From the NCBI GenBank assembly GCA_021156175.1, contig JAJNBL010000003.1:49675-113674 (forward strand): a DNA stretch of 64,000 bases, given 5' to 3'. The number at the start of each line of letters is the position of its first letter. Positions within the stretch are counted from its first letter, which is position 1. Under the pieces are notes generated by a model. It did no database searches. It was not told the DNA's origin and saw only the letters and a list, made by a program, of their open reading frames with translations. Source of the stretch: Rickettsiales bacterium. Lineage in GTDB: Bacteria; Pseudomonadota; Alphaproteobacteria; Rickettsiales; JAJNBL01. This document shows, piece by piece, positions 55,778-58,638 of this stretch. The position numbers were made by a program, and so were the translations under genes.

Positions 55778-57115
55778 ATGACCGTTATTTCCCGTTTTGC
55801 CCCATCACCTACCGGCTATCTCCATGTTGGAAACGTTCGCACCGCCTTGGTAAACTGGCTTTATACCCGCTCTAAGAATGGGAAATTCCTGCTTCGGCTC
55901 GATGATACCGATAAAGAGCGTTCGAAAGAGGAATATGTCGAGGGGATTAAGCGCGATCTGGCCTGGTTGGGCTTGACCTATGATGGCGTGGAGCGTCAAT
56001 CGGATCGATTCCCGCGTTATAAAGAAGTAGTGGATCAGCTGACCAAAGAAGGACGGTTCTACCCATGCTATGAGACGCAGGAAGAGCTTGAAATCAAGCG
56101 GAAAATGTTGCTTTCTCGCGGGCTACCGCCGATTTATGATAGGGCGGCACTGAAGCTTACGGATGCTCAAAAAGCGCAATTTGAAAAAGAGGGACGTAAA
56201 GCCCATTGGCGCTTTAAATTGGCGCCGACTCCGATGCAATGGCAGGATGAAGTCCGTGGTGAAATCCGTTTTGAAGCGGAGAATCTAAGTGACCCGATTC
56301 TAATCCGTGAAGATGGTACGCCGACTTATATGCTACCCTCTGCGGTCGATGATTTCGATATGGGGATTACCCATGTGGTGCGCGGGGAAGACCATATCAC
56401 CAATACTGCGATTCAAATCCAAATTTTTGAAGCGCTAGGCAACCATATGCCAAGTTTTGCACATCTTTCCCTGATTAAAAGTAAGGACGAAAAAATCTCG
56501 AAGCGGGAAGGGGGTTTCGATATTGCGACCCTCCGGGAAGAAGGGATTGAGGCGATGTCCATTGCAAGTTTCTTCGCTAAACTCGGGACATCTGATCCAA
56601 TTGAGGTGAAAGAGAGCTTAGAGCAGCTTATCGCAGAGTTCGATATTAAACGCTTCAGTAAAGCCCAGGCGCTTTACGATAAAGAAGAGCTGGTGCGTTT
56701 AAACAGCAAGTTGGTCCATCAGATGCCGTTTGCTTCCGCGAAAGAACGTTTGAAAGCGATGGGACTCACTCATGTGGATGAGGCGTTTTGGGATTCAGTA
56801 CGTCCGAATCTTCAGACGCTTGCTGAAATTAAAGACTGGTGGAATATCTGCAAAGAAGCCATTACGCCTGCGATTGAAGATGCCGAATTTGCGCGCCAAG
56901 CTGCGGGTTTATTGCCAGAAGGCAATTGGGATAGTACTACCTGGCATGAGTGGGTGGAGAAGGTAAAGGGCTCGACTGGCCGCAAAGGCAAGCAACTCTT
57001 CATGCCGCTTAGGAAAGCCCTTACAGCGAGGGAGTCTGGCCCTGAGCTTGCGGCGATTCTGCCGTTGATTGGGCGTGAACGTGCTGTGAGGAGATTGCAT
57101 GGGGAAGCGGCTTAG
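55778..57115 (+). CDS. gltX: glutamate--tRNA ligase
   Basis: PSPTGYLHVGN (HIGH) and KISKR (KMSKS) motifs are present. The last 32 codons are duplicated at 58540..58638. Confidence 0.93.
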   Translation: MTVISRFAPSPTGYLHVGNVRTALVNWLYTRSKNGKFLLRLDDTDKERSKEEYVEGIKRDLAWLGLTYDGVERQSDRFPRYKEVVDQLTKEGRFYPCYETQEELEIKRKMLLSRGLPPIYDRAALKLTDAQKAQFEKEGRKAHWRFKLAPTPMQWQDEVRGEIRFEAENLSDPILIREDGTPTYMLPSAVDDFDMGITHVVRGEDHITNTAIQIQIFEALGNHMPSFAHLSLIKSKDEKISKREGGFDIATLREEGIEAMSIASFFAKLGTSDPIEVKESLEQLIAEFDIKRFSKAQALYDKEELVRLNSKLVHQMPFASAKERLKAMGLTHVDEAFWDSVRPNLQTLAEIKDWWNICKEAITPAIEDAEFARQAAGLLPEGNWDSTTWHEWVEKVKGSTGRKGKQLFMPLRKALTARESGPELAAILPLIGRERAVRRLHGEAA

Positions 57116-57122
57116 GCCCCCC

Positions 57123-58472
57123 CTATTCACGCTCATTAACTGCTAAAAAGGCTTCCTTTAGAAACTCTAAAATAGCGGTGCCATCCGCTACACCACCGTT
57201 TAAAAGTGCACTGTAATTCTCGCTACCAGGTGTCATTATATCCTTCAGTAATGCCGGATGGGTACGGTGCAGTGTTTGCACGGATACTTTTGTCAGAATC
57301 GTTGCCTCGATAAGGAGCTTAATATTCTCGCTCTCCATTGCGGTATCAAGACTGCTTCTTTTTGTTCTTTCAACGAAAGAAGAGGCTGGCCCAGAAGAGG
57401 GGGCAGTTTTTGCAAGTTGGCTGCGTAACGCTTCTAATCCAGGCTTCAGTTCGTCTCTTGTGCAAAGTGTTTCTTGATTTGGCAGAAGTTGTTCCAAAAA
57501 GCGCTTCTTATCCCAAGAGATATTTCTGTCTTTATACCACTCTTCCAATGTATCGATATTGATGCGAGTTATAGAAAAATGCCCGGCCGATGTCTGGGGT
57601 GTTCGTTGTGCATTGCCAATGCGTTCTGGCGCGAGGAACGTATCTACATTACTATAGAGATTTTCCCTGGTTTGCAAAGGCGTTCCAAGATATTCCTGTA
57701 TTTCAGAAACTATTTTTATTTGGTCACGCGTCGAAGGATTGAAGTGCTGATGAAAGTGGAGTTCATCTGTTTCCAGGCCATATTGTGTTACTTCTTTTGG
57801 AGCATTTTTGGGATATGCTAACGGAAGGCTGTAATAAGCATGAGGCCAGAATCCGTAATCATTTTGTACGAACGCACAGGCCTTTTTCTCGATCAGTTTT
57901 TGAAGCACAGCATTATTGCGGAAAAATGCTGCCCAATGCAGCGGCGATTGGTTATCGCGAGCGGGCATGTCGGGATCGGCACCTGCATCAAGTAATGCAA
58001 GGGTGATGTCGGTATAATTTTTCTTGAGTGCCAATATAAGTGGAGTGTTGTTGCAGTTGACTCCCTGATCCGCGGAATTGAATGCGCGTTTTGCGGTATC
58101 ATTACCGTTTTTCATCTCTTGAATCAGCGCAAATACAAGTGGTTTATTTCCTGTAGCGATTGCAAGGAGGAGGGGAGTGTTACCGATATTCGTATCTTGG
58201 ATTTCCGGTCTTGCACCTGCCTTTATCAGTAATGTCATTGCTTCAACGGACAATTCCTGGTCCTTGCTAAACGCCAACATGTGAAGGGCGGTAGAGTGTT
58301 TATTCCCTCTTGCGATGTAGCTCATGGGATATTTAAAAGGAAGCTGGGCATTCACATCCTCGCTCTGCTTAATTGCTTGTTGCATTAAGGTAAGCAGTTT
58401 TTCCTGCTCTTTAGGAGATGGTTTTTGGGCGCTTGTTATATTTTCTATGGCTTCATGCAGCTTTGATTTCAT
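57123..58472 (-). CDS. ankyrin-repeat protein
   Basis: ANK units are present: GNTPLLLAIATGNKPLVFALI, NNTPLILALKKNYTDITLALLDAGADPD and NQSPLHWAAFFRNNAVLQKLIEK. Confidence 0.85.
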   Translation of the reverse strand: MKSKLHEAIENITSAQKPSPKEQEKLLTLMQQAIKQSEDVNAQLPFKYPMSYIARGNKHSTALHMLAFSKDQELSVEAMTLLIKAGARPEIQDTNIGNTPLLLAIATGNKPLVFALIQEMKNGNDTAKRAFNSADQGVNCNNTPLILALKKNYTDITLALLDAGADPDMPARDNQSPLHWAAFFRNNAVLQKLIEKKACAFVQNDYGFWPHAYYSLPLAYPKNAPKEVTQYGLETDELHFHQHFNPSTRDQIKIVSEIQEYLGTPLQTRENLYSNVDTFLAPERIGNAQRTPQTSAGHFSITRINIDTLEEWYKDRNISWDKKRFLEQLLPNQETLCTRDELKPGLEALRSQLAKTAPSSGPASSFVERTKRSSLDTAMESENIKLLIEATILTKVSVQTLHRTHPALLKDIMTPGSENYSALLNGGVADGTAILEFLKEAFLAVNERE

Positions 58473-58539
58473 AAGTACCTCCTCTTTGAATTATTATGCC
58501 TAAAGTGGTTAGTGTTCAAAAGATATTATATTACTCTTA

Positions 58540-58638
58540 GCCCTTACCGCGAGGGAGTCTGGCCCTGAGCTTGCGGCGATTCTGCCGTTGATTGGTCGTG
58601 AGCGCGCTGTGAGACGGTTGCATGGTGAGGCGGCTTAG
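58540..58638 (+). pseudogene. displaced 3' fragment of gltX
   Basis: It encodes [32 protein letters not shown], identical in amino acids to the gltX tail. Confidence 0.8.

Follow-up and report, generated by a model that had tools for sequence, protein, structure and literature searches.

The window analysed here is a stretch of 64,000 nucleotides from contig JAJNBL010000003.1. We describe the 3′ end of its glutamyl-tRNA synthetase (GluRS) gene, gltX, where a single ankyrin-repeat gene is bracketed by two copies of the gltX tail. The exact matches of the GluRS and ankyrin proteins belong to a metagenome-assembled genome (MAG) labelled "Rickettsiales bacterium" with locus tags K0R63_, and the GluRS match (P0001) is the glutamyl-tRNA ligase of a Rickettsiales MAG. 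From gltX to cysS, the region is composed of the following features:

55778..57115, + strand: gltX, glutamyl-tRNA synthetase, 445 aa, intact (Pfam tRNA-synt_1c, E = 1.7e-78; Anticodon_2)
57016..57115, + strand: repeat copy 1, attL-like, the working gltX 3′ end (repeat search, codon comparison)
57026..57072, + strand: identical core of 47 nt, putative crossover region (second copy at 58549–58595)
57116..57122, no strand: 7-nt spacer from the gltX stop (TAG) to the stop of the convergent ankyrin gene (sequence)
57123..58472, − strand: ankyrin-repeat cargo gene, 449 aa (Pfam Ank, Ank_2, Ank_3, Ank_4 and Ank_5 above cut-off)
58473..58538, − strand: region upstream of the ankyrin gene, 66 nt, up to the right border of the insert (sequence)
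58539..58638, + strand: repeat copy 2, attR-like, orphan untranslated gltX tail (repeat search, codon comparison)
58639..59750, − strand: extra 1.1 kb between the orphan tail and cysS, two unannotated open reading frames (ORFs; ORF list)
59751..61094, + strand: cysS, ancestral downstream neighbour of gltX (Pfam tRNA-synt_1e)

The repeat search returned an ungapped direct repeat of 100 nt with 91% identity at 57016–57115 and 58539–58638 (offset 1,523 nt). The initial annotation had given it as 99 bp from 57017 and 58540; the ungapped repeat stands and extends one base further on the left. Similarity sets in sharply at 57016/58539 and runs up to the TAG stop, with unrelated sequence on either side, and both the attL-like and the attR-like copies are complete and in register. 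A codon-by-codon comparison places the nine nucleotide differences in eight codons (copy 1/copy 2: ACA/ACC, GGG/GGT, GAA/GAG, CGT/CGC, AGG/AGA, AGA/CGG, GGG/GGT and GAA/GAG), with GGGCGTGAACGTGCTGTGAGGAGATTGCATGGGGAA as the variant sequence of copy 1. All nine are synonymous on re-alignment, both copies encode the same 32-residue peptide and gltX is full length, as the initial annotation had stated together with the 47-nt identical stretch (57026–57072 and 58549–58595), which the comparison also recovers. The synonymous share of random single-base changes in the repeat is 27.8%, giving p ~1e-5 for nine of nine synonymous differences and 3.5e-5 when counted by codon. Evolution of the two tails under selection for one and the same peptide is supported. 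The differences are also unevenly placed: were the eight variant codons scattered at random, 15 or more consecutive codons free of differences would be expected with p = 0.02. Over the last 14 codons, copies 1 and 2 differ at 8 nt in seven codons with no amino-acid change, nearly as many as the 11 nt at which copy 2 differs from the closest relative, at 76% GluRS identity (a by-eye count from the alignment).

Two independent Joint Genome Institute (JGI) assemblies, made from separate samples, have the same repeat and insert structure, and 25 positions nearby distinguish the strains in them. The source runs are JGI 3300042904 and 3300044648 and Logan SRR35179664, the last of which contains the ankyrin protein. 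The islet is therefore not an assembly accident, and the duplication claimed in the initial annotation has the backing of a second assembly.

The insert between the repeat copies measures 1,423 nt, and the ankyrin gene is the only gene in it. The ORF list and Pfam bear out that the cargo is one antiparallel ankyrin gene whose stop lies 7 nt from that of gltX. The domain assignment is clear (Ank, E = 2e-16 and 59.6 bits against a cut-off of 21.1; Ank_2, 57.9 bits against 27.3), with the repeats at approximately residues 50–200; the C-terminal half matches no known domain in Pfam. Among 5.8 billion proteins, the ankyrin protein has no homologue beyond generic ankyrin similarity, and no second cargo context was found there. 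Its gene has a GC content of 44%, compared with 49–51% in host genes. A σ70-like site, TTGAAC-18-AATAAT, lies upstream of it at 58519 to 58490; this is a consensus match only, and such sites are no more numerous in the region than expected from shuffles. Judging from its domain type only, the cargo product would most probably be a eukaryote-like effector that is secreted. Pfam and PHROG reveal no integrase, relaxase or transfer gene between the gltX repeats and no transposase either, and the insert ends share no inverted repeat of 7 nt or longer.

To the right of the insert, no + strand ORF of at least 40 aa covers repeat copy 2. The following 1.1 kb holds two minus-strand ORFs (58544..58981 and 59039..59593) without Pfam or PHROG matches, the first of which ends antisense into copy 2. 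No third, decayed gltX-tail copy was found beside cysS.

Relatives of this locus are distant. The nearest GluRS among the 5.8 billion proteins is 76% identical and all others are at most 65% identical. A GluRS scan of genome contigs gave no match above 54% identity, and a metagenome scan with the GluRS alignment gave relatives of at most 57% among the matches listed, which were used as background loci only. In the 76% relative (locus L078), cysS follows gltX after 200 nt, and in two relatives at 63–64% GluRS identity (L090/L091 and L092) gltX and cysS share an overlap of 4 nt. The distance in the window is 2,636 nt, made up of the ankyrin islet, the orphan tail and the further 1.1 kb. Since gltX abuts or overlaps cysS in the relatives, the 2.6 kb between them in the window is inserted, and the presence of a further 1.1 kb besides the ankyrin islet indicates that this junction has been invaded more than once. 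The view of the initial annotation that the cargo is an insertion is thus retained, with the size amended: the extra DNA relative to the relatives is 2.6 kb, not 1.4 kb.

A same-species genome without the ankyrin islet does not occur in the collections, and both strains carry it. Among 75 other alphaproteobacterial loci, no true copy of the gltX tail lies downstream of gltX; the one match, antisense inside panC (locus L038), is spurious. A degenerate pattern of 14 residues of the tail peptide had no matches in metagenome or viral contigs, a collection that apparently lacks the source metagenomes.

Which of the two gltX tails is native can be read only from the codons, because the peptides of the copies are identical. 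The codons of copy 2 match the usage of housekeeping genes in the window, whereas those of copy 1 are nearer to the low-GC cargo genes, with a combined likelihood ratio of ~40. Host genes rarely use the variant codons of copy 1, including the pair AGG AGA, and cargo genes use them more often. Of the variable nucleotides, copy 2 has five in common with the 76% relative and copy 1 has two, a by-eye count that is weak. From codon usage, and from the γ-carbonic-anhydrase (γ-CA) islet described below, we infer that copy 2 is the displaced resident tail and that copy 1 to the right of the core (57073–57115) is the imported part.

The initial annotation had suggested a genome-wide scan for other duplicated coding-sequence tails. 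Run at the protein level on the window and on the loci of relatives, with every ORF tail compared against the 8 kb downstream of it, such a scan yielded three more cases. Their components are as follows:

4478..5008: γ-CA-like gene; its tail, 4908–5008 (101 nt), is repeated at 6453–6562 (89% over 79 nt)
5033–6088: truncated integrase homologue between the γ-CA tail copies (PHROG phrog_1 integrase, E = 1.5e-12)
36854..37288: GNAT acetyltransferase gene; its last 53 nt (37236–37288) are repeated at 38894–38949
37296–38843: LRR_6 (leucine-rich repeat, LRR) gene, 515 aa, convergent with the GNAT gene, between the GNAT tail copies
1484–2314 of L078, the closest relative (17-kb contig): lon islet, a relB/yafQ toxin–antitoxin (TA) pair between lon tail copies

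The window therefore holds three tail-bracketed islets, gltX/ankyrin, γ-CA/integrase homologue and GNAT/LRR, and together with the L078 contig there are four in 89 kb, compared with none in 2.25 Mb of other loci. That all four events fall in 3.8% of the scanned DNA has p ~2e-6, or ~5e-5 without the ascertained case. This strong clade enrichment points to a lineage-specific agent rather than an accident. The ~48 kb available from three relatives at 62–64% identity contains no tail-bracketed islet. None of the scan matches in the other loci is a true tail copy: one is a full-length paralogue of csp, one a 5′ gltX repeat and one a short tandem repeat. The four islets are 0.6–1.6 kb in size, and their tail copies contain identical stretches of 47, 35, 28 and 103 nt.

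The γ-CA islet supplies the decisive evidence on which tail is native. Its integrase homologue lies directly after the attached tail, the usual position, and the two tails encode different C-termini (QLGKSL versus RLAQKNTTI). In an exact-sequence cluster look-up, two γ-CA alleles of 179 aa end in ...YVELAHEYRLAQKNTTI, which is the tail of the distal copy, and the attached tail reads ...YVDLAREYQLGKSL. Two contigs from other samples, L173 (JGI 3300044648) and L174 (Logan SRR15168755), show the empty site, with the same gene order, no insert and the same downstream gene 90 nt after the γ-CA gene. Because the empty-site alleles carry the tail of the distal copy, the orphan copy is native and the attached tail is imported, as predicted by a single crossover with a tail-bearing circle. 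Comparison of L173 with the window also maps the exchange. There are two differences in 1–3500 and none in 6753–7186, but ~10% divergence over 3500–5008 and 5–19 differences per 100 nt over 6453–6752. A diverged block of ~3.25 kb (~3500–6752) with identical flanks shows that the γ-CA islet was exchanged by homologous recombination in the flanks, and the islet is a natural presence/absence polymorphism between otherwise near-identical strains.

In the GNAT/LRR islet, the tail copies have three synonymous differences and then encode different C-termini (KQL versus KAIN). The stop codons of the convergent genes are arranged as TAG-N7-CTA (37286–37298), the same as in the gltX/ankyrin islet. The protein predicted for an empty GNAT site was not in the collection searched by exact sequence. 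In the lon islet, a second copy of the final 104 nt of lon lies 727 nt downstream; 103 nt are identical, the stop codon being TAG in one copy and TAA in the other.

We favour, with modest confidence, the explanation that a small integrative islet left the repeat as a scar of the attL/attR type. The islet would have originated through a site-specific integrase and later decayed or been mobilized in trans, in the manner of a cis-mobilizable element (CIME). An incoming circular DNA would have carried the ankyrin gene, its promoter and a copy of ~100 nt of the gltX 3′ end. A single Campbell-type crossover with the chromosomal gltX inside the common 47-nt stretch would have kept gltX intact, with its last 14 codons now supplied by the imported tail and the old tail left untranslated behind the cargo. 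The crossover would have been made by the site-specific tyrosine integrase of a larger element that has since decayed, or by one acting in trans. On this model, the predicted attB (empty-site) junction is ACAGCGAGGG...GATTGGTCGTGAG and the predicted attP (circle) junction is ACCGCGAGGG...GATTGGGCGTGAA. The islet today would be non-autonomous, and would spread from strain to strain only with its flanks via ordinary homologous recombination.

The core of this model, that the cargo came with a copy of the gltX tail and crossed over in the identical core, was already put forward in the initial annotation and is well supported by the structure of the repeat, the adjacency of gltX and cysS in the relatives, the empty γ-CA sites and codon usage. 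The further proposal there, that the tail was a working gltX end from a related donor, is unproven and no better supported than a substitute tail borne by the element. The codons of the imported gltX part, atypical for host genes, fit an element-borne tail at least as well as an orthologous one, and the attached γ-CA and GNAT tails encode different extreme C-termini, which is expected of a substitute tail and not of the allele of a near relative. A site-specific origin is favoured by these C-termini and codons, by the exact coincidence of the repeat ends with stop codons, by sharp left borders, by the canonical place that the integrase homologue occupies in the γ-CA islet, and by a long identical stretch lying beside near-saturated synonymous divergence.

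Several observations weigh against a decayed site-specific element. The gltX islet has no recombinase, and no intact one was found in the 64-kb window or its annotated flanks. The sole integrase homologue, in the γ-CA islet, is truncated, and its family is without the conserved HxxR...Y catalytic end. One gene or one TA pair is packed tightly against both repeat copies in three of the four islets, and tightly packed single units make up all four inserts. Random decay of larger elements would not easily leave islets this compact, twice with exactly 7 nt between stops. The tails of 100, 101 and 104 nt in three different genes are unexpected from independent integrases. In three of the four islets, a CGCGA motif occurs 4–9 nt inward of the left border (p ~0.015, post hoc), and CGCGAGGG is common to the gltX and GNAT left borders (p ~0.07, post hoc). 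Finally, the 47-nt identical stretch would serve RecA as well as an integrase. The uniform tail lengths, the N7 spacing, the CGCGA motif and the compactness keep the compact cassette itself under consideration as the mobile unit.

The main competing explanation, close to the reading in the initial annotation, is insertion-duplication without a recombinase, which we rate as unlikely. Circular DNA from a related strain, carrying that strain's own gltX tail and the ankyrin gene, would have entered by a RecA-mediated single crossover in the 47-nt stretch; the circle could, for example, have looped out between the two tails of an islet that the donor already possessed. An integrase is missing from three of the four islets, and stretches of identity of 47, 35, 28 and 103 nt suffice for homologous recombination, which demonstrably exchanged the γ-CA islet in a 3.25-kb block at ~10% divergence. 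Purely synonymous divergence is what orthologous tails should show. The genome encodes ComEC (DUF4131 and Competence domains, ~27415–29631) and RadA/Sms (17619–18992), both in the window, and uptake of DNA and recombination of imported DNA are therefore plausible. However, insertion-duplication leaves several things unaccounted for: the origin of the first duplication, the position of all four repeat ends exactly at stop codons together with their sharp left borders, and the non-native C-termini encoded by the attached γ-CA and GNAT tails. A diverged donor should also differ within the 47-nt stretch, as it does in seven of the right-hand 14 codons (p ~0.02), and the imported codons are not host-like.

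We also entertain, tentatively and at somewhat lower probability, the idea that the clade has its own recombinase-free cassette family of 0.6–1.6 kb, with a synonymously recoded tail of ~100 nt as its handle, moved by an enzyme in trans (possibly one reading a CGCGA-containing site at the left border) or by host recombination. The stricter form of this idea, in which lineage-specific miniature cassettes are born compact with one gene or TA pair and a gene-tail handle of ~100 nt and are moved in trans by some enzyme, appears improbable. It accounts for four compact islets of 0.6–1.6 kb, the tails of 100, 101 and 104 nt in three of them, the TAG-N7-CTA spacing in both islets with convergent genes, the CGCGA near the left border in three of four (p ~0.015) and the strong clade enrichment. 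Against this, there are only four cases and the motif was picked after the data had been seen, no candidate enzyme was found, one tail measures just 53 nt, and the islets show no hairpins and, apart from one 12-nt pair at lon/relB-yafQ, no terminal inverted repeats. One islet moreover contains a decayed integrase homologue, as ordinary decay of a larger element predicts.

Far less probable is that the orphan tail is a leftover of the resident gene. An imported block with an orthologous gltX and the ankyrin gene would have replaced gltX, with homologous recombination at one end and illegitimate joining at the other, so that the last 100 nt survived as a stump. No special core is then needed, and the whole γ-CA gene is indeed ~10% off the empty-site allele, the same as between its tail copies. 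However, the γ-CA orphan copy and the next 200 nt are diverged as well (5–19 per 100 nt), and the background beyond is identical. With the orphan copy and the DNA following it inside the diverged block, there is no resident stump from a one-sided replacement, and this model was rejected. Random illegitimate joins would also not yield 100–104 nt three times.

A local duplication (a long target-site or tandem duplication) followed by drift, or an artefact of assembly, is hardly tenable: direct repeats around an insert do resemble target-site duplications, but an untranslated copy should gain mostly non-synonymous changes (nine of nine synonymous, p ~1e-5, or ~1e-3 by our own estimate if selection acts on the attached copy while the orphan drifts), neither terminal inverted repeats nor a transposase are present, and the same junctions occur in two independent assemblies that agree with each other, with a graph mis-join excluded because the 58538/58539 junction has no sequence in common with the body of gltX.

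Known types of mobile unit were rejected on similar grounds. A transposon with target-site duplication does not fit a 100-nt repeat whose nine differences are all synonymous though one copy is untranslated. The tails do not fold into attC-like hairpins (single-strand DNA folds, z of −1.0 to +1.7 relative to shuffles), and Rfam matches comprise two tRNAs only. No integron integrase was found in the window, and each insert is single, behind a different housekeeping gene, with no array. In the absence of hairpins, of terminal inverted repeats at gltX and of Rfam matches, integron cassettes and transposons are excluded.

Further features accompany the islets. At the lon/relB-yafQ islet, a 12-nt inverted repeat, AGTCATTTGCAT, is present at both insert ends; it also resembles the operator-like palindromes of that TA promoter. 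The integrase-like family of the γ-CA islet has seven members among the 5.8 billion proteins, 27–47% identical, including those at 5033–6088 of the window, 8118–9290 of locus L079, 10001–11212 of L081 and 985–2112 of L082. Its Pfam matches, to Arm-DNA-bind_3, Phage_int_M and Phage_integrase, are all below threshold. The L081 member, a distant one, lies at the end of an island with a relaxase, MobC and HipA. Downstream of the integrase-like gene, all four loci share a conserved non-coding motif, ATTTTRRAAATCTGT ... CYTGGCCAGG, at ~6205–6280 in the window, ~9440–9520 in L079, ~11380–11460 in L081 and ~2230–2280 in L082. In L079 and L081, a conserved 60-aa ORF that weakly resembles σ70 region 4 (helix-turn-helix) comes after the motif.

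The LRR gene contains an 84-nt tandem repeat at 37662–38465 (seven overlapping copies reported), and next to it, at 38963–40190, three tandem paralogous genes for small membrane proteins form repeats ~385 nt apart. A second, shorter LRR_6 gene (19205–19783) is convergent with radA (17619–18992) and has no bracket, so that the arrangement is not universal for eukaryote-like genes here. Neither this pair nor the other convergent pair, cysS and the ORF at 60928–62028, has tail copies.

Between the two JGI strains, the interval 55512–60349, which includes the whole ankyrin islet, has no differences. Of the 25 differences in 10 kb, 18 cluster at 60350–61205, within the 3′ half of cysS and the minus-strand ORF that overlaps it, and this cluster is probably another recombination tract. 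The ORF in question (60928–62028, 366 aa) shares 167 nt with the 3′ end of cysS; its N-terminus, LSLPGEILVEIFQRLS, is F-box-like by eye and has no Pfam match. The gltX surroundings of two other loci carry repeats of a different kind. In L078, the 200-nt spacer between gltX and cysS (7557–7757) holds a long inverted repeat with arms of ~28 nt (gtcatcccagcgaaggctgggatccagc / gctggattccagccttcgctggaatgac), which looks like a small hairpin insertion at this junction. In a Rhodomicrobium MAG (L057), a 233-nt stretch from the 5′ part of gltX is repeated with 93.6% identity ~1.3 kb upstream of the gene (8725–8957 / 10064–10296), and this may be an insertion at the gltX 5′ end.

In an uncultured bacterium with many eukaryote-like genes, the islets show how single candidate effector genes and a TA pair arrive immediately behind essential genes. 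The tail-copy bracket is a simple, searchable mark of recent gene gain that also tells which end was imported, and the γ-CA islet provides a natural presence/absence polymorphism whose exchanged haplotype block is mapped to a precision of a few hundred bases. Should the mobile unit prove to be the compact, integrase-less form itself, it would represent a novel type of cargo carrier, and a very small one; if a miniature cassette family exists, eukaryote-like effector genes (ankyrin, LRR) would be slotted behind essential genes in this way. Recurrence, clade specificity and the mapped γ-CA polymorphism make the system moderately interesting rather than surprising.

In size and content, the islets recall integron cassettes, which are promoter-proximal or single-gene mobile units of ~0.5–1.5 kb with TA pairs as frequent cargo. 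Both are small units of a single gene or a TA pair. Unlike integron cassettes, the islets have no attC-like hairpin, no intI, attI or array, and each insert lies at a different gene tail.

A second comparison is with the degenerate tycheposon remnants and partial tRNA copies in the genomic islands of Prochlorococcus, where repeated integration at the 3′ end of a conserved gene leaves partial target copies, fragmented integrases and cargo in a streamlined genome (bioRxiv 10.1101/2020.12.28.424599). Partial copies of the target gene and cargo at the 3′ end of a conserved gene are common to both, although tycheposons target tRNA genes and form large islands, whereas the islets described here occupy four different protein-coding genes with one small insert each.

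In Streptococcus, the tyrosine integrases encoded by ICEs (integrative and conjugative elements) and by IMEs (integrative and mobilizable elements) target the 3′ ends of the housekeeping protein genes rplL, rpsI, rpmG, guaA and lysS (PMC4701971; PMC5704250). As at gltX, the 3′ end of an essential gene is targeted, including that of an aminoacyl-tRNA synthetase gene, one of the flanking direct repeats includes the gene end, and the product is unchanged or nearly so. The repeats of those elements are 12–54 bp long and near-identical, whereas the gltX repeat has 100 nt and 9% synonymous divergence. The elements themselves are tens of kilobases long with an integrase and transfer genes, and the host here is an uncultured MAG labelled Rickettsiales. 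CIMEs, the decayed remnants of ICEs and IMEs, retain attL and attR without integration and transfer genes (PMC5704250). The gltX insert resembles them in lying between att-type repeats at the 3′ end of a gene with no recombinase or transfer genes. It differs in that no feature ties the gltX islet to a larger parent such as an ICE or IME and no conjugation genes lie nearby, and in that the islets are single-gene and unusually uniform.

The classic parallel is the e14 element of Escherichia coli, which inserts in the icd 3′ end and leaves the icdC pseudogene (PMC13626634). With e14, as with phage 21, an essential gene gets a substitute 3′ end and the native end is orphaned on the far side. In E. 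coli K-12, we measured 12 differences between the icd and icdC copies over 165 nt, comprising nine synonymous codons and two Asp-to-Glu changes; there too, the two tail copies differ almost only synonymously. The e14 element is 15.2 kb long and encodes intE and xisE, whereas the gltX islet has 1.4 kb, one ankyrin gene and no recombinase. The icd differences are evenly spread, with a longest identical run of 29 nt, whereas those of gltX flank a 47-nt identical stretch. In summary, the principle of integration at a gene end with a substitute tail is already known and accounts for the striking repeat pattern; what is new is the target gene gltX, the host clade and the miniature, integrase-less form.

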